The position numbers were made by a program, and so were the translations under genes. Shown piece after piece: positions 49,236-62,416 of a stretch of 64,000 bases of DNA. How positions within the stretch are numbered: position 1 is the stretch's first letter; each line of letters begins with the position of its first letter. The DNA is from SAR86 cluster bacterium AG-422-O05 (GTDB lineage: Bacteria; Pseudomonadota; Gammaproteobacteria; Magnimaribacterales; D2472). Below the pieces are notes generated by a model, which was not told the origin of the DNA, made no database searches, and was given only the letters and a program-made list of their open reading frames with translations. The stretch is from positions 4,303 through 68,302 of the forward strand of contig QCMW01000002.1 of the NCBI GenBank assembly GCA_003213495.1. The letters run 5' to 3'.

Positions 49236-50915
49236 ATGAATGATTATGATTTTATTATTCTAGGTGCTGGCTCAGCGGGTTGTGTTTTAGCTAATAGACT
49301 AAGTAAAAACTCTAATTTTAAGGTATGTCTTATAGAGGCTGGTTCAAAAGATTCAGATCCTAGGTTGCATATACCTTTAGGCTTTGCATTTTTAGGAGAC
49401 GGAAGTAAATTTAGTTGGAATTATGAAACTGTTCCTCAAAAAGAATTCGAGAAAGAGGTTGTTGCCCAGCCTGTTCAAGAAGTAATAGATTCAACCGGTG
49501 GAACTCACAAAGTTGAAACTGAATCAATGGAGCATAGAAAAGGATTCCAACCAAGAGGAAAGACTCTTGGGGGGTCTAGCTCAATCAATGCAATGTTATA
49601 TGTCAGAGGGCATCGATGGGATTATGATCATTGGTCAGAATTAGGAAATGAAGGCTGGTCGTATGACGAAGTTCTTCCTTATTTTAAAAAGGCTGAACAC
49701 AATGAAGAATTTGATGATGAATTTCATGGCCAGAGGGGACCTTTAAATGTTTCTAAGATTAGACATCAAAACACACCAACTGATGATTTTGTTAAAACTG
49801 GTTCTGAGTTATTTGGTTTTAATGATGATTTTAATGGTGCTGAGCAAGAGGGCGTAGGTTATTATCAAACTACACAAAAAGATGGAAAAAGATGCAGCGC
49901 TGCAAAGGCATATCTAGTTCCTGCATTAGAAAGAGAAAATTTAACTGTAATGACAGATACAAATGTTAATAAAATTCTATTTGAAAATAAGAAAGCTGTT
50001 GGTGTTGAATGTATCGACAAAGATGGGAAAGTGATAATAGTCAATGCAAATAAAGAGGTAATATTGAGCTCAGGTGCATTTGGATCTCCTCAAATATTAT
50101 TAAGATCTGGCATTGGGCCGTTAGGAGAAATAGTAAAGCATGACATTGAACACATTCATGAACTTCCAGGTGTTGGCAAAAATTTACAAGACCATATTGA
50201 TTATTTATCTGTGCACAAATATAACTCCATTGAATTAATTGGATTTTCTTTAAAATCGATCTTTTATAAATTTCCACTTGAGATAATAAAGTATATTTTT
50301 GCAAAAGTTGGTTTGTTCACGTCAACAGTTGCAGAGGCAGGTGGATTTATCAAAACAAATAATGAAAAAGATATACCAGATATCCAGTTACATTTTGCAC
50401 CAGCTATGGTTATTGATCATGGAAGAACTTCGGTCTGGGGCCATGGACTAAGTTGTCATGTATGTCTTTTAAGGCCTAAGTCAAGAGGAGAGGTTACTTT
50501 GAAATCTTCTGATCCTTTTGAAGACCCTTTAATAGATCCAAAGTTTTTATCTCACCCTGATGATGTTGCAGACCTAGTTGAGGGATATAAAAAAATGATG
50601 ACCATTTTAAATAAAAGCCCTGTAAGTAAATATACATCTAGTCATGTGCAGCGACCAATAGATTTAAACGATAATGAAGATATTGAACAAGCAATAAGAG
50701 AAGAAGCAGACACTGTTTATCATCCAGTAGGAACTTGCAAGATGGGTAGTGATGAAATGGCGGTGGTTAATCACAACTTGGAAGTACATGGTATTGAAGG
50801 ATTGAGAGTTGTTGATGCATCTATCATGCCAACATTAATAGGAGGTAATACCAACGCACCAACCATAATGATTGGAGAAAAAGCTTCAGATATTATTTTA
50901 GAGCATTGGTCTTAG
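49236..50915 (+). CDS. GMC-family FAD oxidoreductase (choline/alcohol dehydrogenase-like)
   Basis: Motifs DFIILGAGSAGCVLANRLS, GGSSSINAM and the C-terminal HPVGTCKMG are present. Confidence 0.9.
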   Translation: MNDYDFIILGAGSAGCVLANRLSKNSNFKVCLIEAGSKDSDPRLHIPLGFAFLGDGSKFSWNYETVPQKEFEKEVVAQPVQEVIDSTGGTHKVETESMEHRKGFQPRGKTLGGSSSINAMLYVRGHRWDYDHWSELGNEGWSYDEVLPYFKKAEHNEEFDDEFHGQRGPLNVSKIRHQNTPTDDFVKTGSELFGFNDDFNGAEQEGVGYYQTTQKDGKRCSAAKAYLVPALERENLTVMTDTNVNKILFENKKAVGVECIDKDGKVIIVNANKEVILSSGAFGSPQILLRSGIGPLGEIVKHDIEHIHELPGVGKNLQDHIDYLSVHKYNSIELIGFSLKSIFYKFPLEIIKYIFAKVGLFTSTVAEAGGFIKTNNEKDIPDIQLHFAPAMVIDHGRTSVWGHGLSCHVCLLRPKSRGEVTLKSSDPFEDPLIDPKFLSHPDDVADLVEGYKKMMTILNKSPVSKYTSSHVQRPIDLNDNEDIEQAIREEADTVYHPVGTCKMGSDEMAVVNHNLEVHGIEGLRVVDASIMPTLIGGNTNAPTIMIGEKASDIILEHWS

Positions 50916-50919
50916 TTTT

Positions 50920-51240
50920 ATGAAAAAGTTTATTTTAAGTATAGCTTTTCTATGTATCACTTTAATTACATCACTAAATGCTGAAGTAATAATCGATGTC
51001 AGAACGATTGATGAGTATAACTCTGGCCACATAGAAAACTCATTAAACATTGAATGGCAGGCTATAGATGAGATTAATCATTCTATTTCTAAAGATGAAA
51101 AAATATATCTTTACTGCAGAAGTGGAAACAGATCAGGTAAAGCACAAAATATCTTAATTAATATGGGATACAAAGACGTAATTAACTTAGGTGGCATAAA
51201 TACTGCTGCAAAGACATTAGGTTTAAATATTGTTAAATAA
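50920..51240 (+). CDS. secreted single-domain rhodanese-like sulfurtransferase
   Basis: Signal peptide is present. The active-site loop is YCRSGNRSGKA. Confidence 0.85.
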   Translation: MKKFILSIAFLCITLITSLNAEVIIDVRTIDEYNSGHIENSLNIEWQAIDEINHSISKDEKIYLYCRSGNRSGKAQNILINMGYKDVINLGGINTAAKTLGLNIVK

Positions 51241-51255
51241 CATTAATAAATATTT

Positions 51256-52179
51256 ATGAAGAGTTTTTTCAGTTTTTTATCAAAATCATCTCAAAAAAAA
51301 ATTTTATGTCTTGATGGTGGTGGAGTCAGAACTATAGCTGCATTAGTTTTTTTAAAAAAACTTGAATCAGAGAGCGGTAAAAAAGTTACAGATATATTTG
51401 ATATGTTTATCGGTACAAGTGCAGGCTCATTGAACGCAGCGTGTTTTGCATATGGTGACTTTTCTGCAGAAAAAGTTAAAAATTATTGGTCAAAAAAATA
51501 TCTTGATAGGATAATGAAAAGTTCTTTTTTTTGGGACAAAGCGTCCTTAATTCAAGCAAGACCAAGATATGAAAACGATGGAAGAATCAATGTGCTTAAT
51601 GAAATTTTCAAAGATAACACTTTAGATAAATCTAAGAAGCCCTTCTTGTGCTATGCATATGATATTGAAAAACGAACACATTCAGTTTTCGATTCCTTCA
51701 ATACACCTGAAATTACTTTTAAAGACGCTGTTGCAGCTTCAAGTGCTGCTCCAATGTATTTTCCTTCTTATCAAATGCAAAATAAATCTTGGATGATCGA
51801 TGGAAGTATAATTACAAATAACCCAACCTTGATTGGATATACATATGCAAAAAATTTATTGGAATCTGAAAATATTAAAATTTTGAGCATTGGTTCAGGT
51901 CAAAATAAAAAGAAAATAAGTGGTGAGGCATCGACAAAATGGGGTGGTGTTGGATGGTTAAGAAACGATATTATGGGGATGCTGCTCGATTCAGAGATTC
52001 ATAATGATATTTCTGGAGATATTTTTAAAAAAAATTATTTAAGAATTAATTCACCGCTTGGAAAGGTTAATAAATTCCTTGATGATGATTCAGAAGAAAA
52101 TTTAGAAAGAATCCATTTAATGGGTATGGAGTGGTGGACCAGATATGGAGAAGAAGCGCTTTCATTTATTGAAAAATAA
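51256..52179 (+). CDS. patatin-like phospholipase
   Basis: Oxyanion motif is LDGGGVRT. Nucleophile motif is GTSAGS. Catalytic Asp lies in IDGSIITNNP. Confidence 0.85.
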   Translation: MKSFFSFLSKSSQKKILCLDGGGVRTIAALVFLKKLESESGKKVTDIFDMFIGTSAGSLNAACFAYGDFSAEKVKNYWSKKYLDRIMKSSFFWDKASLIQARPRYENDGRINVLNEIFKDNTLDKSKKPFLCYAYDIEKRTHSVFDSFNTPEITFKDAVAASSAAPMYFPSYQMQNKSWMIDGSIITNNPTLIGYTYAKNLLESENIKILSIGSGQNKKKISGEASTKWGGVGWLRNDIMGMLLDSEIHNDISGDIFKKNYLRINSPLGKVNKFLDDDSEENLERIHLMGMEWWTRYGEEALSFIEK

Positions 52180-52279: not shown

Positions 52280-55200
52280 GTGAAACAATTTTTATTGTCA
52301 TTGGTGTTCTTATTGCCAGTATCTTCTTATGTTTTTGGACAAGAAACTGAAGAGGAGAACGAAAACGAAGTTGAGGAAATTGTCGTTACTGGTATAAAGT
52401 CAAGTTTAGTCGATGCTATTGAAATAAAAAGAAATAACATCGGTGTCACCGAAATTATTACAGCAGAAGACGTTGGAAAATTTCCTGATGGAAATATTGC
52501 TGAAGCCTTAGCAAGAGTTTCTGGTATTGCAATTGACAGAAGCAATATCGAAGGAAAGGAAGTTACTGTAAGGGGTATGGGTGCTCAATATAACATGGTA
52601 ACTTTAAATGGAAGAGTTATGCCGGTTGCTCCTGGTAATTATGATGGTGGTAGAGCCTATGACTTTGGAGCAATATCTTCACATGGAATAGCTAGAGTTG
52701 AGGTATATAAATCACAAAATCCTTCTTTACCCTCAGGTGGTTTAGGGGCCACGATTAACATGGTTACTGCAAAACCTTTGGAAGTAGATAATGGAGGAGC
52801 ATTATCATTTTTATTGATGTCAGATTCCACAAATGTAAACGGAGATGATATGACACCAGAACTTGAGTTTATTCATAGTTATAAATCTAGCTATCTTGGA
52901 CTGGATTGGGGTGTCTCATTTTCTGGATCTTATCATGACAGAAGTAACAGAGAAGAAACCACAAATGAAATGAAGTGGCTTCCTAGTAATCTTCAAGCAC
53001 CTACTTTTGGTCCAAACGTCACCGATAATAGTGGTGGCATTGTTAATTATAGGCCTCAAGGATTTTTTGTTGGTTACAAAGACAATCAACGCGAAAGAAA
53101 AAATCTTGCAGCCTCATTTCAAGTATCAAATCAAACTACGACAGTTACAATTGATGGAGTTTATTCAGGTGTTGATTTTCAGTCATCTGGTAATAGGGCA
53201 GGTTCAGGACTTGATATTGCCTACAGCGTTCCTTATGGGGCAGGCATTGGTATGGATAATGTAAATATTGATTCAAATGGTGTTGTAAACCAATTTGATA
53301 TTGTTGGATCTGGAACAAACTTGACTCAATTTGTTGATTGGAGCTCTGAGAAAACAGCAAACAGATCAATTGGTCTTAATGTTGAATGGACTGGTTCAGA
53401 TAGCTTAACTCTTGAATTTGACTATCATAATTCAACAGCTGTTAATTCAGGTGGTGCTAATGATATGGGATTTGCAAATGGCTCATGGTCTGGATATGGA
53501 GATGGGCAAAGTTTTGATAATGGAAACCCCTACAACCAATGGGCTGAACTTACTAATTTAAGATTTATTGCCAATAATACTATTCCTGATTGGATTCCAA
53601 CAACAAGTGTTGGTTTTCAATGGTATCCAAGAACTGAAAGAGATTTAGAAGGGGTTGATATGTCATCGACAACTGCCCATTTAAGATATAACAATAAAGA
53701 AAGTAATCTTTCTCAATTTCAAATTAAAGGTGATTGGCAAAACATTAATGAATTTTTATTGGAGAAGCTGGTATCAGTTCAGTTTGGACTTTCATCAATT
53801 GAACAAAAGTTTGATAGAACTCTGAGGTCAAATACATTATTTGCACCCATTCAAGACGGTGCTGCGCCTGGCTCTTTGATATGGGGTCCCAATTTTTGGA
53901 ATGATGATGCGTTTACACTTACAAGTTTAGCTGGTTTACTGGGCGATTCATCCGACGGTTTAAGCGTACCTTATTATATGCATATCAATTTTGATGATGC
54001 TGTAGCAGGCTACTCTCAAGGATATTGGATAAATTCTCCTACTTGGAATTGTTCTGAAGGTTTCCCAAATTGTTATGGTTCTCCAGAGGATATTGCTACA
54101 GTAAAGGAATCGACAGATTCAGCATATATACAATTAAACTTTGAAGGTGAATACAACATGATGCCTTGGAAGCTAGTTACTTCTTTAAGATATGAAGAAT
54201 TGATGCTTAAAGCTCCTCAAAACTATAATGTTCCAACAGGCACTTTCATAGGTACTTACGGTTGGGGTGATGGCCCGTATTTTATTTTTGGACCTACTCA
54301 AAATGGAGAAATGCCATTAAGAAATATTTCAGGATCATATAGTTCTAAATCTGAAATGGTTTTACCAAGTTTTGCTTTTAGTATTGCTCCGTCCGAAAAT
54401 ACAGTCGTAAGATTAAGTGCAGGTAAAACTATTGCTAGATCAGGCTTAGAAAAATTTTCACCTAATGTTGTATTTCCTCAGTTCCTTAGCATGAATAATC
54501 CAGTTCACGTAAATACATCAGGTAATCCTGATTTAGAACCTCTAGTTAGTAATAATATTGATTTAGCTTTTGAATATTATTATGCAGAGGGTAGCTATGC
54601 CGCTGTTAATATTTTCCAGAAAGATTTAAAAGACTTTCCAGGCAACTCTACAACAAGAGTTACTTATGATGGTTTATATGATGTTAGATATGGAGTCAAT
54701 GGAGCTGGGCCAGCTGATACCTCAACAGTTGTGTTAAATTGGCCAAATTATCAAACTATAGATCAAGTAACTTTTGGAAGTATGGATTGGTGGCAAACAT
54801 TAATGAAAATTTACCATGCAACCGTTCCAGGTACATCATGTACTTTAGACCAAAGAACTTGGAGTGACTATTTTTATTATAATAGTACAGAATGTGTTCA
54901 AAGCAGCTCTTCAATTAATCCATTAATGCAATTCGATATTAACAGGCCTGAAAATATTTATTCGGGTAAGCTTGATGGAGTTGAGATAGCGCTTCAACAT
55001 TTCTTTGTAAACACCAATTTTGGATTTATTTTTAACTACACTTTTATTAATGGAGATACAGAGGCATCACCTACTGCTGTAAGAAATGAATCCTTTGAAT
55101 TGGCTGGATTTGGAGACTCTGGAAACCTATCTGTTTTCTATGAAAATGAAAAATTTTCTGCCAGACTTTCCAATAATTATAGAGCTGAAACATATGTTGG

Positions 55201-55411
55201 ATTTGATGAGTATAACCCTTTATGGGTTGAGGCAAGATCACAAGTTGACTTCAGTGCATCATATAGAGTTAATGATGGCGTTAGTCTTTTTGTGGAAGGA
55301 TTAAACATAACTGATTCCGAAGTGCGTTTATACGCAAGATATGACAATATGTTATTCTTAGCGCAAAATCATGGACCTGTTTACAAGGCTGGATTCAGAG
55401 TTAAGTTTTAA
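52280..55411 (+). CDS. TonB-dependent outer-membrane receptor
   Basis: GTG start with an AGGGGG SD. Signal peptide, acidic linker and EEIVVTG are present. Plug motifs are NIAEALARVSGI and TLNGR. It has a long beta-barrel ending ...YKAGFRVKF. Confidence 0.93.
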   Translation: MKQFLLSLVFLLPVSSYVFGQETEEENENEVEEIVVTGIKSSLVDAIEIKRNNIGVTEIITAEDVGKFPDGNIAEALARVSGIAIDRSNIEGKEVTVRGMGAQYNMVTLNGRVMPVAPGNYDGGRAYDFGAISSHGIARVEVYKSQNPSLPSGGLGATINMVTAKPLEVDNGGALSFLLMSDSTNVNGDDMTPELEFIHSYKSSYLGLDWGVSFSGSYHDRSNREETTNEMKWLPSNLQAPTFGPNVTDNSGGIVNYRPQGFFVGYKDNQRERKNLAASFQVSNQTTTVTIDGVYSGVDFQSSGNRAGSGLDIAYSVPYGAGIGMDNVNIDSNGVVNQFDIVGSGTNLTQFVDWSSEKTANRSIGLNVEWTGSDSLTLEFDYHNSTAVNSGGANDMGFANGSWSGYGDGQSFDNGNPYNQWAELTNLRFIANNTIPDWIPTTSVGFQWYPRTERDLEGVDMSSTTAHLRYNNKESNLSQFQIKGDWQNINEFLLEKLVSVQFGLSSIEQKFDRTLRSNTLFAPIQDGAAPGSLIWGPNFWNDDAFTLTSLAGLLGDSSDGLSVPYYMHINFDDAVAGYSQGYWINSPTWNCSEGFPNCYGSPEDIATVKESTDSAYIQLNFEGEYNMMPWKLVTSLRYEELMLKAPQNYNVPTGTFIGTYGWGDGPYFIFGPTQNGEMPLRNISGSYSSKSEMVLPSFAFSIAPSENTVVRLSAGKTIARSGLEKFSPNVVFPQFLSMNNPVHVNTSGNPDLEPLVSNNIDLAFEYYYAEGSYAAVNIFQKDLKDFPGNSTTRVTYDGLYDVRYGVNGAGPADTSTVVLNWPNYQTIDQVTFGSMDWWQTLMKIYHATVPGTSCTLDQRTWSDYFYYNSTECVQSSSSINPLMQFDINRPENIYSGKLDGVEIALQHFFVNTNFGFIFNYTFINGDTEASPTAVRNESFELAGFGDSGNLSVFYENEKFSARLSNNYRAETYVGFDEYNPLWVEARSQVDFSASYRVNDGVSLFVEGLNITDSEVRLYARYDNMLFLAQNHGPVYKAGFRVKF

Positions 55412-55430
55412 AAATATATATCAAAAGTAA

Positions 55431-55456
55431 AAGAGGGCTTTTTAGCCCTCTTTTTT
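55431..55456 (+). terminator. rho-independent terminator after the TonB-dependent receptor
   Basis: AAGAGGGC-TTTTTA-GCCCTCTT is followed by a T-run. Confidence 0.85.
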
Positions 55457-55468
55457 ATTTGTATAAGA

Positions 55469-55474
55469 TATAAT
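55469..55474 (+). promoter_or_regulatory. TATAAT hexamer 6 nt upstream of ATG 55481 (possible leaderless start)
   Basis: Read directly. There is no SD between the hexamer and the ATG. Confidence 0.3.
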
Positions 55475-55480
55475 TTGTAT

Positions 55481-57532
55481 ATGAATATTCTTAGGATATT
55501 TATTGTTATATTTTTTATTGTTTCCTGTGGTGGAGGCGGAGGAGGCGGCAGTGCACCCCCAGCTCCATTTGCAATAACTCTTGCATCAAGCACTTCTATA
55601 TCAGTTGATGAAGATACTACATACACAGGTAATGTAGTTGCAACTGCTAATGAGCCTGTAACACTTGAATATGCACTTGTTTCTTCAACAACAAATGGAA
55701 TCCTTACTTTTTTGACAACTGGAGCTATCACTTATACTCCCAATGAAAATTTTAATGGGCAAGATGAATTTTCTTATTCTGTTACTGCAGTCGAAAAAAG
55801 CATTACAAGAAATAGCACAGTTACAATTACAGTTAATTCTGTAAACGATTTGCCACAGATATCATTAGATTCAAAATTAAATTTAGACAAAGATCATCTT
55901 ATTTTTGAAAATAATCCTACATTTTCTGTTTCGTTTTCAGATGTTGATAATATAGATACAGATTTTAGTTTTAGTGCATCTATAAACTCGGAAAATGTTG
56001 GAGCAACTTTTACTTCAACTGGTGATGGTCAAGGAGATATAGTTCTAGATTTATCAACTCTATCTAAAGCAGGTTTATTCAATGCGGAAATTATAATATC
56101 TGATGGTATGGATACCGCTAGTGATTCATTTAATACATGGTTCATATCTAATAAACAAACCGTTACTGTTGCTCAAGATGACGACAAAAGTGATGGTTTT
56201 GATTCTGGCACCACAACAAATAAAGATTATTATGTGTATTATCTTGTTGGAGGTGGCTCAACCTTTGGAAGAACTGATTACTTGTTTGTTGCTGATTCAT
56301 TAAAAGCAGACCCTAATGATGGAACGTTATCTGATACTGATAGTTTTAGAGAAGCTTTACTGAAATCCATTAATGCTCTTAATGATTCAGATGCTTCTGA
56401 ATTTTTTACAGGCTATTTTGATATTGTTGTTGCAGAGCCAGTAAGTCCTGATGGAACTTCTTTAGCATCTATTGAAACAGGTTGTTATGACTGGGATGAG
56501 GATGTTTATTGCATTGGCTCTGGCGATATAAATGATTCTGTTTTTGATGATCTGTTTGCTGAACATGATTTAGTCTCAGTCCTAACAATGATAGATGGCA
56601 GAGGAGTGAATTTGGGTAACACTAACATTCAAGAAATCAAACCTAGAACAGAATATACTTTAATGCATGAGTTGGGTCATGCACATGGTGAAATGGGAGA
56701 CGAATATATAACTACTGACGATAGAGATGTCAGTCAATGGGCAGATAGAAATGTTAATACGACAACACAGGCAGATCCATCATTAGTTAAATGGAATCAT
56801 CACATATCAGACTTTATGAATGTAGCGGGAAAAGACTTTAAGGTTTGTTATAACTATGCAGATGGATCTATTTATGACGAGGGTGAGGATGCAACTACAT
56901 GCGACTGTTTGTTCAATTTATATGATGCAAATGGAAATAGAACTGGTAGAAATCCAGAATGCGATGTTGTTGGCCTTTTTGAAGGAAATTATTATGGGGA
57001 GTTTGATAATTATAGGCCAAAATACTGGACTATTATGGAGGGCGGTATTTTAAAATATGGTGAGGTTAATACTGAAGGTTTCGCAATAGGATCAATTCAT
57101 AACCAGGGTTTTTTATATGGTGATGAGGTAGGTTTTGTCACCGATGAGTCGGGGGCTAGAACTGGTTTTGAAATAGATATTGATGTTGTATATGATAATT
57201 CTAAGTTAAGACTTAAATGGTATATAAATGGTGTTGAGGATCCATCAAAAGAAAATCAAACAAGAATAGTATTTGATAGACCGACCAATAATACTGTGCA
57301 AATTTATACATGGAAAGTTGATGATCTTACTGGAACTGTTACAGCACCCGACGACGTAACTGATGTAAATGATTTTTATGAAGGATTATTTAATTCTGAT
57401 TTTTACTGGTGTGACAGAACAAGTGGCTCATGTCAGTGGGGCTATAACCCAACGGATCAATCCCAATATCATTATGGTTATGTAACTGGTCCAATGGGAG
57501 GGACCTGGGGTATTAATTGGTCAAGGTGGTAA
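55481..57532 (+). CDS. lipoprotein: Gly7 tether + Ig/cadherin-like (tandem-95-type) modules + M64-like zinc metalloprotease domain
   Basis: The start is trimmed from TTG 55475 to ATG 55481. Lipobox FIVSC is followed by GGGGGGG. The Ig-like module is ...VDEDTTYTGNV...ITYTPNENFNGQDEFSYSV...VNSVNDLPQ. The zincin motif is HELGHAHGEMGDEY (56666-56707). Confidence 0.8.
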   Translation: MNILRIFIVIFFIVSCGGGGGGGSAPPAPFAITLASSTSISVDEDTTYTGNVVATANEPVTLEYALVSSTTNGILTFLTTGAITYTPNENFNGQDEFSYSVTAVEKSITRNSTVTITVNSVNDLPQISLDSKLNLDKDHLIFENNPTFSVSFSDVDNIDTDFSFSASINSENVGATFTSTGDGQGDIVLDLSTLSKAGLFNAEIIISDGMDTASDSFNTWFISNKQTVTVAQDDDKSDGFDSGTTTNKDYYVYYLVGGGSTFGRTDYLFVADSLKADPNDGTLSDTDSFREALLKSINALNDSDASEFFTGYFDIVVAEPVSPDGTSLASIETGCYDWDEDVYCIGSGDINDSVFDDLFAEHDLVSVLTMIDGRGVNLGNTNIQEIKPRTEYTLMHELGHAHGEMGDEYITTDDRDVSQWADRNVNTTTQADPSLVKWNHHISDFMNVAGKDFKVCYNYADGSIYDEGEDATTCDCLFNLYDANGNRTGRNPECDVVGLFEGNYYGEFDNYRPKYWTIMEGGILKYGEVNTEGFAIGSIHNQGFLYGDEVGFVTDESGARTGFEIDIDVVYDNSKLRLKWYINGVEDPSKENQTRIVFDRPTNNTVQIYTWKVDDLTGTVTAPDDVTDVNDFYEGLFNSDFYWCDRTSGSCQWGYNPTDQSQYHYGYVTGPMGGTWGINWSRW

Positions 57533-57540
57533 AAAGACGT

Positions 57541-58008
57541 ATGAGATATTTATTTATTTTAGCTTTTGTATTTTCCTTTACAGTTATGGCTGAAAAAGAT
57601 TTAAAAGAAATAGACCTAATTAAGCTACACGTTTCACCAAATCAAGATGCAAAGATATTTACTTTTCATGGTACTCCAGATTTATTTACATTGAAAAAAA
57701 TCGAAGTTCAAAAACCTAAAGAGAGAATTCTTAAAAAACTTAAATTTGTAAGCGATGATGATAAGTATGCAGTAAAGCTATTTGATAATTCAGGAAGGCA
57801 CTTAATAACTTTAGGTATTGGTAATCCATTTTATGCATCGTATGAGCATATTGGATATGAAGACAGAGCATACATGGGTGGACCTGTATCCGCAAATAAT
57901 TTAAGCATAGCAATTCCTATTGAGTTAGATCCATCATATCTCATAATTTCAAGGCGAGATGTCACTGGAAAATTTATAGATTTTCAAGAGATACTTTTGC
58001 CACAATGA
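57541..58008 (+). CDS. secreted protein of unknown function linked to the M64-like lipoprotein
   Basis: The start is trimmed to ATG 57541, 9 nt after the upstream stop. Signal peptide is MRYLFILAFVFSFTVMA. It is 155 aa with a beta-rich pattern. Confidence 0.6.
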   Translation: MRYLFILAFVFSFTVMAEKDLKEIDLIKLHVSPNQDAKIFTFHGTPDLFTLKKIEVQKPKERILKKLKFVSDDDKYAVKLFDNSGRHLITLGIGNPFYASYEHIGYEDRAYMGGPVSANNLSIAIPIELDPSYLIISRRDVTGKFIDFQEILLPQ

Positions 58009-58061
58009 CGATTTAATATTGTTGAAAGCAACCATGTTAAAGAGTATATTAAGCATCCAAT

Positions 58062-58137
58062 GCGGTACTAGCTCAGTTGGTAGAGCGTCTGCTTGCCAAG
58101 CAGAAGGCCGCCGGTTCGAGACCGGCGTACCGCACCA
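58062..58137 (+). tRNA. tRNA-Gly (anticodon GCC)
   Basis: 76 nt. Acceptor stem is GCGGTAC/GTACCGC. Anticodon stem is TCTGC/GCAGA with loop TTGCCAA. T arm is GCCGG-TTCGAGA-CCGGC. CCA is encoded. Confidence 0.95.
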
Positions 58138-58178
58138 ACTTATATCTAAAATATTTATATAAAACTAATCTTCCGATA

Positions 58179-58194
58179 AATACATTAATGTATT
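58179..58194. promoter_or_regulatory. perfect 16-bp palindrome AATACATTAATGTATT (candidate operator)
   Basis: Read directly. It lies 29 nt upstream of ATG 58223, between tRNA-Gly and the SD AGGAGAG. Confidence 0.35.
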
Positions 58195-58222
58195 ATTAAT
58201 ATTCATATTAGGAGAGATAATT

Positions 58223-58930
58223 ATGAAAAAATTTTTTTATAGCTTATTCGCTTTTGTTTTTCTAACATCACAATCATTAAATGCAGCAGGCTATTTGGCG
58301 ACATATTCAATGAAGGTTTCAAATCCAGCTGCTTATGTTGAAGCGCTTGATGAGTTAATGAATACTGATTGGGGTAAGTCATTTGCTGGAGATGTTTCAC
58401 TCCATCAATATGCATTCAATGGTTATGATGATGCAACCCATGTTGTTGTTCTAAATTATGAAAATCCAGAAAGCTTAGGTACCGGAACAGAATCTTTTAC
58501 GGATCCTGTATTTTTATCATTCTTTGCTGAAACTGCTTCTATCGCTGAGCCAGTAGAACAGTCTTTAAACATGAAATTAATTAGCGTATACAATGAAAAC
58601 GCTGATGAAGATCAAGTTTATACAATCTACAGAATGCAAGTTAAAGATGCTTCTGCGTATGCTAAAGAATATACCAAACTTACAAACGCTCAAGTTGAAT
58701 CAGGAAATATCCAAGGTAGCTATGGTCTAAGACAATTGGTTGCTGGTGATACTAGATACTATACACATTATGCTTATACAAGTGCTCCAAGTGTTGCAGA
58801 AGCTATGAAATCAGCTGAAACTTTGTACGGAAGCGATTCATTTGCAAAGTTTGCAGATAAGGTCAGTGAAAACAGAAGAGTTATGAATATTTCTATATTA
58901 ACTAATATTGTTAACTATCCTGCAAATTGA
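58223..58930 (+). CDS. secreted protein with two tandem alpha+beta (dimeric alpha/beta-barrel/NIPSNAP-like) modules
   Basis: Signal peptide is ...LTSQSLNA. The internal repeat is YLATYSMKVSNPAAYVEALDEL / VYTIYRMQVKDASAYAKEYTKL and THVVVLNYENPES / YYTHYAYTSAPSV. Confidence 0.7.
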   Translation: MKKFFYSLFAFVFLTSQSLNAAGYLATYSMKVSNPAAYVEALDELMNTDWGKSFAGDVSLHQYAFNGYDDATHVVVLNYENPESLGTGTESFTDPVFLSFFAETASIAEPVEQSLNMKLISVYNENADEDQVYTIYRMQVKDASAYAKEYTKLTNAQVESGNIQGSYGLRQLVAGDTRYYTHYAYTSAPSVAEAMKSAETLYGSDSFAKFADKVSENRRVMNISILTNIVNYPAN

Positions 58931-58950
58931 TTTTATAGATTTTCTAAATA

Positions 58951-58973
58951 AGGGAGCTTTTGCTCCCTTTTTT
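58951..58973 (+). terminator. rho-independent terminator
   Basis: AGGGAGC-TTTT-GCTCCCT is followed by a T-run. Confidence 0.85.
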
Positions 58974-58987
58974 ATTTTTAGCTAATT

Positions 58988-58993
58988 TATAAT
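58988..58993 (+). promoter_or_regulatory. TATAAT hexamer 7 nt upstream of ATG 59001 (possible leaderless start)
   Basis: Read directly. No SD is present. Confidence 0.3.
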
Positions 58994-59000
58994 ATATGAA

Positions 59001-59948
59001 ATGTATATTTTTAAGTTTTTACTAGTATTAATTCTGCTTTATTCGTGTGGAGGTGGATCTTCAAGTACAGATTTTGAAAATAACCCTCCAACCACCCAAA
59101 CACTAAATTCAACTGAAACATGTATAAGTACTCAAGTGCCAAATCTTAAAAGATGCGATTTAGTGCATGATAATATTGATAGATTTTACTTTTTGTATGA
59201 GCCGTCTAATCTCGATACAAATTCAAGTATTGCTGTTTTATTTGCACTTCATGGATACGGATCTTCTGCGATGACTCACTTTAATTATACAAATTATGAG
59301 CCCCTTGCTAATGCGAATAATTTTATTGTTGTATATCCCCAAGGTACAACTAGTAATGGCTTAAATACTCATTGGAATAATGGAGGTTGGACCTCTAAAA
59401 GCACTGCTAAAGATATTGAATTTATAGATACTGTTATTGAATATATTAAATATAAAATTTCTATTGACGTAAAAAGAATATATTCTTCTGGAATGTCTAA
59501 TGGTGGCTATATGAGTTATCACTTAGCTTGCAATCTAGACAACACATTTGCTGCTGTGGTTTCTGTTACTGGATCAATGACTACTGATACTTTTGATAAT
59601 TGTGCACCGTCACATCCAACTGCTGCAATGCAAATTCATGGGGTACAAGATTTAACAGTTCCATATCTAGGAAGCGGTTGGTCAAAAAGTATTGAAGATG
59701 TAATTGATTATTGGGTCAGTTACAATTCTTGTGATTTTGAACCCGAAAGGCTAATTAAATACTCTAATCAAACAGATTTAATAAATTTCGATACTTATGG
59801 CGGATGTTTAAATAATGTTAATGTTAAATTAATTCTACATTCTGAAATGGGCCATACCTGGCCTTTCATTCAAAACTACAATATAGATGCTAGTCAAGAA
59901 ATATGGGATTTTGTTTCAAAGTATGATTTGGATGGCTTAAGAAATTAG
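59001..59948 (+). CDS. lipoprotein esterase, PHB-depolymerase/feruloyl-esterase-like alpha/beta hydrolase
   Basis: Lipobox LLYSC is followed by GGGSSS. FALHGYGSS, the nucleophile elbow SGMSNGG, and the distal IHGVQD and MGHTWP are present. Confidence 0.8.
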   Translation: MYIFKFLLVLILLYSCGGGSSSTDFENNPPTTQTLNSTETCISTQVPNLKRCDLVHDNIDRFYFLYEPSNLDTNSSIAVLFALHGYGSSAMTHFNYTNYEPLANANNFIVVYPQGTTSNGLNTHWNNGGWTSKSTAKDIEFIDTVIEYIKYKISIDVKRIYSSGMSNGGYMSYHLACNLDNTFAAVVSVTGSMTTDTFDNCAPSHPTAAMQIHGVQDLTVPYLGSGWSKSIEDVIDYWVSYNSCDFEPERLIKYSNQTDLINFDTYGGCLNNVNVKLILHSEMGHTWPFIQNYNIDASQEIWDFVSKYDLDGLRN

Positions 59949-60033
59949 GTATAAAAAATTTACATATTTGTATCAAAATTTTCTTATTTGAATGTTATAT
60001 TAGAAATTCGTTTTTATTATAGAGGAGATAAAT

Positions 60034-60462
60034 ATGAGATTATTATTAATTTCAATGTTGATATTTTCTGTATCAGCCTTTACTCAAGAAGAGTCATCAA
60101 GAGAACCTGCACCTGGCGTAACAGAGCTTACTGTTATAAAAGTTAAAGCCAACTATCTTGGAGATTATATGGATGGAATTGAAAAAACATGGGTTGCATC
60201 TAATCAAATTGCTAAAGATATGGGCAAAATTGTTGATTATGGCGTTTATGTTGGAAACAATAACTATGTATATTTGACAGTTCAACACGAAAGTTATGCT
60301 TCTATGGATCCATCGTATTGGTCTGAAGAAGAAACAGAAGAATTTCAAACTAAATTTCGAAAAATTATTTCACAAGATGATCAAACATCAACCGCGCAAT
60401 CATATGAAGACATTCGTGAAATTGTTAGAGTTGAAATGATCAATCAAATTATTTTTAAATAG
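60034..60462 (+). CDS. secreted single-module alpha+beta protein (same family as neighbours, putative)
   Basis: 142 aa with a signal peptide. The beta1-alpha1 pattern is TELTVIKVKANYLGDYMDGIEKTW. A strong SD is present. Confidence 0.6.
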   Translation: MRLLLISMLIFSVSAFTQEESSREPAPGVTELTVIKVKANYLGDYMDGIEKTWVASNQIAKDMGKIVDYGVYVGNNNYVYLTVQHESYASMDPSYWSEEETEEFQTKFRKIISQDDQTSTAQSYEDIREIVRVEMINQIIFK

Positions 60463-60471
60463 GAGGAAAAT

Positions 60472-61224
60472 ATGAAACTTTTATTAAGTTTAAGTTTGCT
60501 ATTAAGCTTTAGTGTTTTTGCAGATGATCATGATTCACAAGAGTCACAATGGAATGTTGCTGAATATTATGTAAGTGTTTTCAAGGATGGCAAAGACATG
60601 GATGACATGATGAAATGGGCAGAAAAATGGAATAGTTGGGCCAATGAGACAGACGATCTTAAAGACTATCGTTCAGCAATGCTTGTGCCTTATTATCACA
60701 GTGGAGAACAACCTCATGACTTTGTATGGGTTGGAATAAGTCCTACTCCAGAAGCTCATTTCAAAGGGAATGATCATTGGTTTAGCAATGGCACAAAACT
60801 CTTAGCAGAATTAAATAAAATTTTGGAAACAGGTAATCAAACTACTTATACATGGCAAAGAGTTGTTTCAGACACACCAAGTGGACAAGCTGGTTATGCA
60901 GTATATACAGATTGTAAGTTGGGAGATGGAGTTACTGCAGATGAATTTTATACTGCATATGTTGCATATGCCAAAGCAGCAAAAGAAAAAGGAGATGTTG
61001 CTGGAAGAAAAATGATTTTTCCACAATCTGGAGTTCCTACAACATGGGATTATGATTTTGTTCAGTTAGTTTCAACAGAAACCATTACTGATTATGGAAA
61101 AAATTGGACTAATTTTTGGAGTAGTGCAACTCCTGAAAGCATGCCCGAATTAAAAGCATTAAATGATTTAGGTGGTTCATGTGAAAATGAAAGAACATAT
61201 GGAATCGTTCCAGTTCGTAATTAG
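60472..61224 (+). CDS. secreted protein with two tandem alpha+beta modules, paralogue of 45343-46239
   Basis: Signal peptide is ...SVFA. VAEYYVSVFKDGKDMDDMMKWAEKW / GYAVYTDCKLGDGVTADEFYTAYVAY, and DFVQLVSTETITDYGKNW...GGSCENERTYG parallels FLWANFSNSKDSMDKASEMF...FATCADTPDVYHG. Confidence 0.7.
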   Translation: MKLLLSLSLLLSFSVFADDHDSQESQWNVAEYYVSVFKDGKDMDDMMKWAEKWNSWANETDDLKDYRSAMLVPYYHSGEQPHDFVWVGISPTPEAHFKGNDHWFSNGTKLLAELNKILETGNQTTYTWQRVVSDTPSGQAGYAVYTDCKLGDGVTADEFYTAYVAYAKAAKEKGDVAGRKMIFPQSGVPTTWDYDFVQLVSTETITDYGKNWTNFWSSATPESMPELKALNDLGGSCENERTYGIVPVRN

Positions 61225-61243
61225 CCATAATTAAAAAAATACA

Positions 61244-61266
61244 AGGGAGCCAATGGCTCCCTTTTT
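61244..61266 (+). terminator. rho-independent terminator
   Basis: AGGGAGCC-AAT-GGCTCCCT is followed by a T-run. Confidence 0.85.
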
Positions 61267-61276
61267 ATTTATAATT

Positions 61277-61282
61277 CATAAT
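61277..61282 (+). promoter_or_regulatory. CATAAT hexamer 6 nt upstream of ATG 61289 (possible leaderless start)
   Basis: Read directly. No SD is present. Confidence 0.25.
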
Positions 61283-61288
61283 AATTTA

Positions 61289-62416
61289 ATGGAAGGTTAT
61301 TCAAATCATATTGCAATTATTGGTGCTGGAATTTCTGGTCTCGCATTAGGGATTATTCTTCAAAGAAATAAAATTCCATGTGTCATTTTTGAAAAGTCAG
61401 AAAAAGTTAGTGAGTATGGAGCAGGAATATCAATATCTCCAAATGGATTGGCAGTTTTAAAAAATCTTGATGTAATTAATGATCTCAAGCTGCTTTCAAG
61501 ACAACCAGGACTAGCAATTTTTTTTTCAAATAACAATAAAGTTAATCAGATTTCTGTAGATGTGCTTACAACCACCAGAAAGAGTCTCTACAAAGTTCTT
61601 TTAGACAAATATTATGCTTTAAATGGAGAAATTCATTTTAGTCATAAAGTAGTAGATATAAATAAAGAAACAAAAACACTAAAATTTGACGAAAAATCAA
61701 TTCACGTTAAGCATATTATTGCATGCGATGGAATAAGATCATTGTGCCAAAAGAAAGTTTCAGCTAAATTTAATGATCCAATATATAGTGGTTATTATGT
61801 CTGGCGAACAATATTCCCATCAGACCAAGCTGATATACATTTTCATCTGGGTCCTAACTTTCATGTTGTTGCATACCCTGTGGATTCGGAGAGATCTAGC
61901 CTAGTGGCTGCAGTAAAGAGCAGTAATCAATTAAATGAATCATGGAAACAAAAGGGCTCAATTCAAAATTTAATTTCAGAAATACCTGCCTCTATCTTAG
62001 AAAATTATCCTTCAATTATGGAAAATTATGGAGTCTATAAATGGGGTGTTTTTTTAAGACCCAATGTTAAAATTTTGTTTGATAAAAACATCACTTACGT
62101 CGGTGATGCTGCTCATCCTATTGTTCCATTTATAGGTCAAGGAGCATGTCTTGCTTTGGAGGATAGCTATGTTTTAGGTAATCTGATAACAAAATATAAA
62201 GATAATTTAAAGATAGCTCAAATAAAATACAATAAATTAAGAATAAAGAGAGTAAGGTCAATTTATAGAAAATCTTTGAATCAAGGTAAATTAAATCATC
62301 TAAAGAATCCACTATTAGTTTTTTTAAGAAACATGTTAATGAAATATACAAACATAATTTCTAGTCAAATAAAATCAATATGGTTTTATGACGTAACTAA
62401 TGAAAAAGATTTGTAA
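61289..62416 (+). CDS. FAD-dependent aromatic-ring-hydroxylase-type monooxygenase (salicylate hydroxylase/UbiH-like)
   Basis: The start is trimmed to ATG 61289, because the track ORF begins inside the terminator. Motifs IAIIGAGISGLALG and GDAAHPIVPFIGQGACLALEDS are present. Confidence 0.85.
   Translation: MEGYSNHIAIIGAGISGLALGIILQRNKIPCVIFEKSEKVSEYGAGISISPNGLAVLKNLDVINDLKLLSRQPGLAIFFSNNNKVNQISVDVLTTTRKSLYKVLLDKYYALNGEIHFSHKVVDINKETKTLKFDEKSIHVKHIIACDGIRSLCQKKVSAKFNDPIYSGYYVWRTIFPSDQADIHFHLGPNFHVVAYPVDSERSSLVAAVKSSNQLNESWKQKGSIQNLISEIPASILENYPSIMENYGVYKWGVFLRPNVKILFDKNITYVGDAAHPIVPFIGQGACLALEDSYVLGNLITKYKDNLKIAQIKYNKLRIKRVRSIYRKSLNQGKLNHLKNPLLVFLRNMLMKYTNIISSQIKSIWFYDVTNEKDL

Follow-up and report, generated by a model that had tools for sequence, protein, structure and literature searches.

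Does the run of exported proteins encoded beside a TonB-dependent receptor (TBDR) in SAR86, an abundant ocean bacterium, constitute a single polymer-capture system or a set of separable modules? We addressed this question for a block at positions 52280 to 61224 of a 64,000-nucleotide stretch of DNA from SAR86 cluster bacterium AG-422-O05 (Magnimaribacterales; contig QCMW01000002.1, positions 4,303 to 68,302 of the forward strand), which has a GC content of 32 to 33% and is referred to here, at its full length, as the window. A preliminary description of the block, made from the sequence alone, listed eight protein genes and a tRNA gene and interpreted them as a capture and degradation unit resembling the polymer-utilization loci (PULs) of other bacteria. 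We count seven protein genes, all on the + strand like every other window feature given below: the TBDR, a lipoprotein with an M64-like zincin domain, its small exported partner p155, the secreted protein p235, a lipoprotein esterase, and the secreted proteins p142 and p250. The coordinates, motifs, signal peptides, and lipoboxes that had been assigned to these genes were all recovered in the list of open reading frames (ORFs) for 50 to 64 kb. Our comparisons suggest that the block is, on balance, probably a conserved SAR86 envelope neighborhood composed of four separable and separately transcribed modules, that is, a modular toolkit. The firmest new result within it is the pairing of the M64-like lipoprotein with p155.

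Conservation of the locus in SAR86

Using the M64-like protein as the query and one genome per species, we obtained 24 loci labeled as SAR86 or Gammaproteobacteria (L001 to L024). One of these, L019 from the single amplified genome AG-430-D13, encodes an M64-like protein 97% identical to that of the window. Gene order was compared by tblastn of all window products against the SAR86 loci. The order GMC oxidoreductase, rhodanese, patatin, TBDR, M64, p155, p235, esterase, (p142), p250, and flavin adenine dinucleotide (FAD) monooxygenase was consistent in ~20 SAR86 genomes. The block is thus conserved in related genomes, the lack of which would have counted against the preliminary description. Signal peptides and lipoboxes are also kept across these ~20 orthologous loci, so the seven ORFs are real genes that have been selected as exported proteins and not chance reading frames.

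Collinearity in SAR86 extends well past this block, over a neighborhood of ~20 kb. Upstream, unrelated genes for alanine dehydrogenase, an epimerase, and a steroid 5-alpha-reductase-like protein are equally collinear in every SAR86 locus, the most divergent included. The last downstream ORF of the region, recognized from L033 and L045 as malate synthase G, is likewise collinear in every SAR86 locus. Within this backbone, the segment from 52280 to 61224 is the most variable portion. The boundaries originally drawn around the block hold only in part, since the listed genes are real but the left edge is arbitrary, with three equally conserved same-strand genes adjoining the TBDR gene. We considered SAR86 synteny as proof of a functional unit and rejected it, because the unrelated flanking genes are just as collinear. 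The general lesson is that conserved synteny in streamlined genomes is a poor ground for inferring an operon-like system. The locus is nonetheless of interest, as it is found throughout the order and holds three families without an assigned function (p155, p235, and p250) together with a divergent peptidase family.

Identity and exchange of the TonB-dependent receptor

The first gene of the block (52280 to 55411, GTG start) encodes a protein of 1043 aa with a signal peptide, an acidic linker, the sequence EEIVVTG, and the C terminus GFRVKF. It scores 483.8 bits for TIGR01782 (cutoff, 310), the TonB-Xanth-Caul subfamily, and both PF07715 (Plug) and PF00593 (barrel) exceed their gathering scores, in agreement with its first designation as a TonB-dependent receptor.

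The TBDRs that occupy this fixed site in L001 to L022 (at ~6.7 to 9.9 kb) fall into three classes, with 38 to 44% identity between classes and 59 to 99% within them. Class A comprises the window TBDR and those of L001 and L019, plus that of L004 as assigned by tblastn; class B is found in L002, L003, L005, L006, L013, L015, L017, and L022, and class C in L007 to L012, L014, and L021. The window TBDR is 95 to 99% identical to its counterparts in L001, L004, and L019 and only 38 to 44% identical to the same-site TBDR in the other 15 loci. This distribution of classes is incongruent with the M64 tree: L001 and L002, for example, have M64-like proteins that are 94% identical, yet one carries a class A TBDR and the other a class B TBDR. 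At the nucleotide level, the window is ~90% identical to L001 and L004 over 52.4 to 55.4 kb, whereas the flanks are 65 to 80% identical. Because the high identity stops at the gene, the alignment indicates horizontal exchange limited to the TBDR gene. L016 (from AH-326-J15) has no TBDR at all but retains the M64, p155, p235, esterase, and p250 genes; here, the M64 start lies ~30 nt past the patatin stop (L016, 9940 to 10020). The TBDR is a swappable cassette that is exchanged between lineages, and its replacement could reflect selection by phages that use it as a receptor or by substrate niche.

Transcriptional punctuation of the block

Three strong intrinsic terminators punctuate the block. 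The one behind the TBDR gene, which had been noticed from the start, lies at 55429 to 55454 and consists of an 11-bp stem followed by a T-run. Two more, absent from the preliminary description, follow the p235 gene (58950 to 58969) and the p250 gene (61243 to 61263, overlapping the called start of the next ORF). Each has counterparts in related loci: a near-identical hairpin follows the TBDR gene in L002 (9950 to 9976) and L022 (9951 to 9975), both of which carry a class B receptor, and hairpins occur at the position equivalent to the p235 terminator in L002 and at that equivalent to the p250 terminator in both L002 and L022. Judged from their positions and conservation, the three terminators would leave the block with no fewer than three or four units of transcription.

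The sequence of the TBDR terminator, AAAAGAGGGC...GCCCTCTTTT, is nearly the same even beside a TBDR of a different class. This terminator seems to belong to the conserved backbone and to mark the right-hand edge of the exchanged segment.

Promoter-like elements were seen at two places. A TTGAAA-17-TATATT site (58022 to 58050) precedes a tRNA-Gly(GCC) gene at 58062 to 58137, for which ARAGORN and Rfam agree with the initial assignment, and in L002 and L022 the same site follows the p155 gene. A TATAAT box lies 7 to 8 nt upstream of the M64 ATG (window, 55455 to 55483) and is found as well in the TBDR-less L016 (9975 to 10003). No Shine-Dalgarno sequence is visible in the window or in L016, and the M64 transcript may lack a leader or carry only a very short one.

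The M64-like lipoprotein

The second gene (55481 to 57532, ATG start) encodes a predicted outer-membrane lipoprotein of 683 aa with an FFIVSC lipobox and a tether of seven glycines after the lipobox cysteine, Cys16. Big_9/cadherin-like immunoglobulin modules (VNSVNDLPQ) follow, then the zincin domain and a C-terminal beta-rich region. Both PF17963 and PF09471 are above their gathering scores. The PF09471 (M64) match scores 31.6 bits (gathering threshold, 26) and aligns residues 359 to 521 with positions 108 to 284 of the 302-position profile. Among the matches listed, all 120 of 120 homologues carry a precomputed PF09471 annotation.

The zinc-binding motif, HELGHAHGEMGDEY, is encoded at 56666 to 56707 and corresponds to residues 396 to 409. 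In 13 diverse sequences with 50 to 84% identity, H396, E397, H400, D407, and E408 are invariant, as are several cysteines. The hallmark of M64 enzymes is HEXXHXXXGXXD, in which two histidines, a general-base glutamate, and an aspartate that serves as the third zinc ligand are combined (PMC12402451, a 2025 study). In HELGHAHGEMGD, the His, Glu, His, and Asp stand at the canonical M64 spacing, but the motif glycine is displaced in the window protein, with Glu at position 9 and Gly at positions 8 and 11; more distant relatives hold the canonical HELGHSFAGLAD. A second, structural zinc site of M64 enzymes is formed by the glutamate following the aspartate ligand and three cysteines (PMC12402451). 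In our alignment, E408, C456, C474, and C476 are invariant, and the C...CxC pattern resembles the ligands of that second site. As a single sequence, the M64-like protein gave no significant match to PDB sequences; as a profile, it retrieved 3P1V (E value, 0.095) and 4DF9 (E value, 0.58), with only the motif aligned. The profile match and the invariant H396, E397, H400, and D407 uphold the original call of an M64-like zincin, and we regard the domain as a divergent M64-type zincin and a putative peptidase.

The family is small. A full HMMER scan of the M64-like region against 1.84 billion cluster representatives returned only 164 relatives at an E value of ≤0.001. Most full-length relatives have a lipobox and a Cys-polyGly tether, and the branch is marine in the contigs examined. 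For several distant M64-like proteins, the contigs were too short to reveal the gene context.

p155 is the partner of the M64-like lipoprotein

The third gene (57541 to 58008) encodes p155, a protein of 155 aa with a signal peptide and a conserved core, GIGNPFY...HIGYED. It starts after a gap of 8 nt from the M64 gene, and an alternative TTG start at 57517 would overlap the M64 stop. p155 adjoins M64 in every locus whose sequence continues beyond the M64 gene, and in L023 (1780 to 4236) the two form a single ORF of 818 aa, in which a linker takes the place of the p155 signal peptide. Among 50%-identity cluster representatives, a C-terminal p155-like domain is present in P0361 (818 aa), P0362 (909 aa), P0365 (867 aa), and P0366 (946 aa). 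P0366 belongs to the SAR86 backbone locus L033 (10001 to 12841); because it sits at this same backbone locus, the M64-p155 fusion arose in place. The core motif (I/L)G(N/D/K)P...H is kept in stand-alone partners of M64 relatives down to 28% identity. Judged by this linkage and these fusions, p155 is an obligate partner of the M64-like lipoprotein. A search with p155 found no significant match to any solved protein among PDB sequences.

More distant relatives place the pair in other surroundings. In L038 (1782 to 13881), L039, and L040, a 28%-identical M64-like lipoprotein and a partner of 151 aa head a type II secretion system (T2SS) operon that looks complete, with an A24 prepilin peptidase, a small ORF, GspD/E/F/G, pseudopilins, GspJ, and GspK encoded downstream of the pair. 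In L042, an M64-like gene and the gene for a 165-aa partner lie among TRAP-transporter and N-glycanase genes. The gene for a peptide N-glycanase (N-glycanase_N/C; L042, 7142 to 8311, - strand; single amplified genome GCA_902512475.1) adjoins the M64-like lipoprotein and its partner there, a neighbor that may hint at glycoprotein substrates for the M64-like family.

Two characterized systems offer parallels. In the Escherichia coli sslE-pppA-yghG-gspC-M cluster, T2SS-beta secretes SslE, a zinc metalloprotease that is lipid anchored and exposed on the cell surface (PMC3707838). In Acinetobacter, the gene adjacent to that for the protease CpaA encodes a dedicated chaperone, CpaB, whose tail fills the protease active site (PMC7542363). 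On the strength of the M64 fusions and these two parallels, we infer that p155 is a detachable C-terminal domain, a chaperone, or a pro-domain of the peptidase, and the M64-like enzyme may be displayed on the cell surface. We also considered whether p155 could be an Inh/AprI-type protease inhibitor, but this is less favored, as recurrent fusion to the enzyme better fits a domain, chaperone, or pro-domain. No T2SS genes were found among the window genes checked; a gene run at 17 to 26 kb was considered as a T2SS candidate and rejected, since it encodes sigma-E, DegP, LepA, signal peptidase, RNase III, Era, RecO, acyl carrier protein synthase, and adenylate kinase. The SAR86 literature that we searched contained no mention of a T2SS.

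The esterase lipoprotein

The gene at 59001 to 59948 encodes a lipoprotein serine esterase of the polyhydroxybutyrate (PHB)-depolymerase/feruloyl-esterase family (carbohydrate esterase family 1 [CE1]-like), with an LLYSC lipobox, a GGGSSS tether, and a GMSNG nucleophile elbow; the lipobox and GMSNG are conserved among orthologues. Its scores relative to the family thresholds are as follows: 141.1 for NF050058 (type 1 extracellular short-chain polyhydroxyalkanoate depolymerase), just under the cutoff of 150; 73.9 for TIGR01840, against a cutoff of 107.85; and 23.2 for Pfam Esterase_PHB, marginally above 23. The closest solved relatives are the feruloyl esterases 8jh8 and 9j07 (E value, ~5e-18) and the PHB-depolymerase-family esterase 8daj. 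In the alignment with 8jh8, GMSNG is matched by GFSFG and HGVQD by HGTND; the orthologues in L009 and L021 also have GMSNGG and the histidine of (E)MGH(T/D)WP. The family matches, the GxSxG elbow, and the downstream Asp and His support the earlier assignment as an esterase. With scores below the NF050058 and TIGR01840 cutoffs, the protein is best described as a relative of the PHB-depolymerase family and not as a confirmed equivalog.

The secreted barrel proteins

Three further products of the block are secreted. p235 (58223 to 58930, 235 aa) and p250 (60472 to 61224, 250 aa) had no Pfam or NCBIfam family in profile scans, and p235 matched nothing significant among PDB sequences. At 90% identity, their homologues form 153 clusters for p235 and 292 for p250, with a Pfam domain in none; searches of the alignment members against Pfam gave only weak subthreshold matches, in a few members (DUF4842 for p250; DUF1330 and NIPSNAP for p235). 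Both families were found only on AT-rich marine contigs. The secreted proteins match no well-characterized periplasmic family; such a match would have counted against the preliminary description.

AlphaFold2 models of p235 and p250, built on the alignments of these homologues (predicted local distance difference test [pLDDT] scores of 90.4 and 89.1, respectively), each contain two beta-alpha-beta-beta-alpha-beta units, and the internal duplication that had been proposed for the 235-aa protein is evident in its model. In hhalign self-comparison, a weak repeat signal was obtained, for p235 only, and hhalign among p155, p235, p142, and p250 detected no homology beyond the signal peptides. Foldseek searches of the PDB returned 2PGC as the best match for p235 (TM scores, 0.70/0.79) and 2PGC plus Cld/HemQ-like proteins for p250. 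Matches of p235 and p250 to 2PGC, Cld/HemQ, anthrone-oxidase-like protein, and sulfur oxygenase reductase have a Foldseek probability of 1.00; putative monooxygenases also match. The structural alignments have only 6 to 14% identity, and 2PGC is a marine-metagenome protein without a known function. The models place p235 and p250 in the dimeric alpha+beta barrel (DABB) superfamily, as secreted tandem barrels of orphan families. The third protein, p142 (60034 to 60462, 142 aa), is probably a single DABB-type domain, a pattern read from its alignment. The first description had spoken of three alpha+beta-barrel-like proteins, which the models bear out for p235 and p250; for p142, the alignment pattern is the evidence.

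The set varies in composition among loci. p142 is patchy (6 of ~20 loci), and p235 is absent from L010 to L012, L020, and L022. L009 (14555 to 16089) has two p250-family genes in tandem, and L021 (14547 to 16082) has p250 plus a distant paralogue of 259 aa. Outside the SAR86 arrangement, the AT-rich marine locus L047 (658 to 6409) combines p250/p235-family genes with genes for an FG-GAP lipoprotein of 814 aa, a secreted cyclase-family protein, and an unknown protein of 228 aa, adjoining malate synthase G. From these comparisons, the DABB genes look like a lineage-specific radiation of periplasmic barrels.

Two features of p250 were noted in passing. Its predicted mature N terminus, Asp-Asp-His (residues 17 to 20), fits the X-X-His pattern of amino-terminal copper- and nickel-binding (ATCUN-like) motifs; the segment has low pLDDT, and the tripeptide reaches at least 90% conservation among 20 SAR86 orthologues and is less well kept in the wider family. 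The Cys148/Cys237 pair is invariant in the 20-sequence alignment.

One system or separate modules

The preliminary description of a PUL-like capture unit stands as regards gene identities, conservation, and export; the inference of a single unit is not supported. As one integrated system, the tethered M64-like enzyme and the esterase would attack a polymer at the cell surface, the TBDR would import the products, and the barrel proteins would finish the breakdown in the periplasm. A TBDR does adjoin M64-p155, the esterase, and p250 throughout the SAR86 order, including lineages in which M64 identity is 45 to 55%; all of the products are exported, and the receptor belongs to a subfamily typical of carbohydrate-utilization (CUT) loci. 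However, the conserved terminators separate the units, the unrelated flanking genes are equally syntenic, and the modules occur apart in other lineages: L023 has the fused M64-p155 without a TBDR, esterase, or DABB gene nearby; L042, L023, and L038 have M64 and its partner without an adjoining TBDR or esterase; and L047 has DABB genes without M64, TBDR, or esterase. Pfam and NCBIfam scans found no SusD/RagB match on any block product, in keeping with the absence of a SusD-like gene remarked on at the outset, and Pfam matches revealed no regulator gene within 49.2 to 62.4 kb. Three features of Sus-like and CUT loci are therefore lacking here, namely a SusD neighbor, transcription as a unit (judged from the terminators) with a regulator, and coinheritance of the receptor with the enzymes. 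The receptor is not coinherited with the hydrolases because the TBDR classes ignore the M64 tree, the exchange is confined to the gene, and one genome (L016) lacks the TBDR. We consider an integrated PUL-like system unlikely.

Several observations nevertheless weigh against separate modules. Seven consecutive genes for exported products amount to a striking local enrichment. In almost every backbone locus, including the most divergent ones (L020, L022, L033, and L045/L046), the gene directly upstream of M64 encodes a TBDR of one class or another. When a different receptor replaces the old one at the same site, the adjacency itself could be under selection, and the presence of three TBDR classes in the same slot could likewise mean selection for a receptor there. 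Co-regulation is compatible with separate terminators. Finally, the proposal that the DABB proteins bind small hydrophobic or aromatic molecules or, cofactor-free, transform them is a working guess from the fold alone. A looser functional theme across the block is plausible.

In the modular arrangement that we favor, the first module would be the Xanthomonas/Caulobacter-type TBDR with its own promoter-like site and terminator, which would import a substrate of >600 Da and be exchanged as a cassette. The second would be the two-gene unit of the lipid-anchored, glycine-tethered M64-like zinc peptidase and exported p155, in which p155 would bind the protease and the enzyme would cut proteins or peptides at the outer membrane, possibly after reaching the cell surface through type II secretion. 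The lipid-anchored serine esterase, as the third, would hydrolyze ester-linked organic matter, and the variable secreted DABB set (p235, p142, p250, and paralogues), as the fourth, would act in the periplasm by binding small hydrophobic or aromatic products or by transforming them. All four would probably serve the harvest of high-molecular-weight dissolved organic matter as a loose toolkit, with no obligate Sus-type complex of receptor and enzyme.

A bolder variant is a receptor-agnostic capture kit unlike Sus, in which a surface M64-like enzyme matured by p155 as a split-off C-terminal domain, the tethered esterase, and a lineage-specific radiation of DABB barrels feed whichever TBDR cassette fills the slot. 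If this were true, pressure from phages or substrates would drive the swapping of the receptor around an unchanging processing kit, and the DABB barrels would be new periplasmic carriers or cofactor-free enzymes replacing the solute-binding proteins that SAR86 largely lacks. We regard this variant as a long shot.

The genes directly upstream of the TBDR raise a different possibility. They encode a GMC flavin oxidoreductase (49236 to 50915), a secreted rhodanese (50920 to 51240), and a patatin-like phospholipase (51256 to 52179), all identified by Pfam matches and present in all SAR86 loci. Together with the esterase, these enzymes could form a lipid or sulfolipid utilization locus that removes acyl chains and head groups from membrane lipids imported by the TBDR, with the barrel proteins carrying the hydrophobic products in the periplasm and the M64 pair as an unrelated passenger. 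Dupont et al. (PMC3358033) describe a TBDR locus with patatin, rhodanese/beta-lactamase-family, and flavin oxidoreductase genes and mention esterases near TBDRs; the same three gene types adjoin the window TBDR. Periplasmic lipid degradation in SAR86 is argued for in PMC11582366, and the esterase, itself a lipoprotein, retains its GxSxG elbow. However, by their N termini, patatin and the GMC oxidoreductase have no signal peptide and are probably cytoplasmic, the nearest solved relatives of the esterase are of the feruloyl esterase and PHB-depolymerase types and not lipases, lipid carriage by DABB proteins is conjectural, and such lipid inferences are termed unclear in PMC8371827. A dedicated lipid locus is accordingly a reading to which we give little credence.

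In L045 and L046 (1303 to 2900), two extra small genes flank the patatin gene: an ORF of 96 aa with a weak PAN_1 match upstream of it and a gene for an RRM_1 RNA-binding protein of 82 aa between the patatin and TBDR genes.

Downstream of the p250 gene, a cytoplasmic member of the FAD-dependent aromatic-ring hydroxylase family is encoded at 61253 to 62416 (PF01494; 136 bits for NF006021, below the cutoff), and this gene is kept in nearly all loci that reach that far. Its called start falls within the p250 terminator hairpin, and the true start is probably Met13, at ~61289, just ahead of the GAGISG FAD-binding motif. An aromatic-ester route, in which the esterase would free phenolic acids from feruloyl-type or polyester material for modification by the DABB proteins and this hydroxylase, is very improbable. 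In its favor, the best solved relatives of the esterase are feruloyl esterases, the structures matched by the DABB models include anthrone-oxidase-like proteins and putative monooxygenases, in a fold shared with cofactor-free oxygenases of the ABM and anthrone types, the downstream gene is in the salicylate/3-hydroxybenzoate hydroxylase family, and aromatic catabolism in SAR86 is proposed in PMC11582366. Against it, the structural matches have 9 to 14% identity in a very common fold with the functionally uncharacterized 2PGC on top, the hydroxylase gene is set apart by a terminator and its product scores far under the family cutoffs, and L047 keeps DABB genes without esterase or hydroxylase.

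Relation to known systems

The modular SAR86 neighborhood can be set against several characterized systems. Like the SusC/SusD PULs and the proteobacterial CUT loci, it has a TBDR, here of the Xanthomonas/Caulobacter subfamily, adjoining exported lipid-anchored hydrolases. It differs from them in having no SusD, carbohydrate-active enzymes, regulator, or single operon, and its enzymes are a peptidase and an esterase.

The M64-like lipoprotein shares with the M64 enzymes (the ThomasA IgA protease; BF3526, PDB 4DF9; BACOVA_00663, PDB 3P1V) the HExxH motif, an Asp seven residues past the second His, and the Glu-Tyr that follows, as well as downstream cysteines that could form a second zinc site. 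BF3526 is itself listed as a lipoprotein. In contrast to these enzymes, the window protein has N-terminal modules of the Big_9/cadherin-like type and not an M64_N beta-sandwich, and its branch is very divergent (31.6 bits) and small (164 cluster representatives), with a displaced motif glycine and a dedicated small partner.

The relatives in L038 to L040 resemble SslE (YghJ) and T2SS-beta in that a zinc metallopeptidase lipoprotein heads a T2SS operon, and the pair resembles CpaA-CpaB in that a protease gene is followed by a small dedicated partner gene. The peptidase families are different, however, as SslE is M60-like and CpaA is a metzincin. No T2SS genes lie near the M64 pair of the window, the linkage being confined to the 28%-identical relatives in L038 to L040.

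As in 2PGC, Cld/HemQ, ABM proteins, and anthrone oxygenases, two ferredoxin-like repeats are predicted to form one barrel in p235 and p250. These two proteins differ in their signal peptides, their low identity (9 to 14%), the lack of a Pfam family, and, for p250, the Cys pair. Pfam and NCBIfam scans gave neither protein a place in the Cld/HemQ or ABM monooxygenase sequence families.

Finally, the concept of a TBDR-hydrolase locus in SAR86, which the preliminary description offered as a candidate undescribed system, has already been published. According to the 2012 paper by Dupont et al. (PMC3358033), many SAR86 TBDR regions hold lipid-degrading enzymes, sulfolipid breakdown is proposed for an example locus, and the substrate of a TBDR is hinted at by its neighbors; the patatin, rhodanese-family, and flavin oxidoreductase trio of that work corresponds to the three genes directly upstream of the window TBDR. 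Periplasmic lipid, steroid, and aromatic catabolism in SAR86 is stressed in PMC11582366. The sections of PMC3358033 consulted contain no mention of peptidases, lipoproteins, barrel proteins, or receptor replacement, and the DABB genes, like p155 and the M64-like lipoprotein, seem to have escaped description. The block does not represent a new class of capture system; what is new here is the linkage of p155 to M64, the barrel proteins as orphan families, and the exchange of receptors as cassettes. The p155-M64 pairing, the DABB nature of the secreted unknowns, and the exchange of receptor cassettes could steer experiments on the newly cultured SAR86 isolate.

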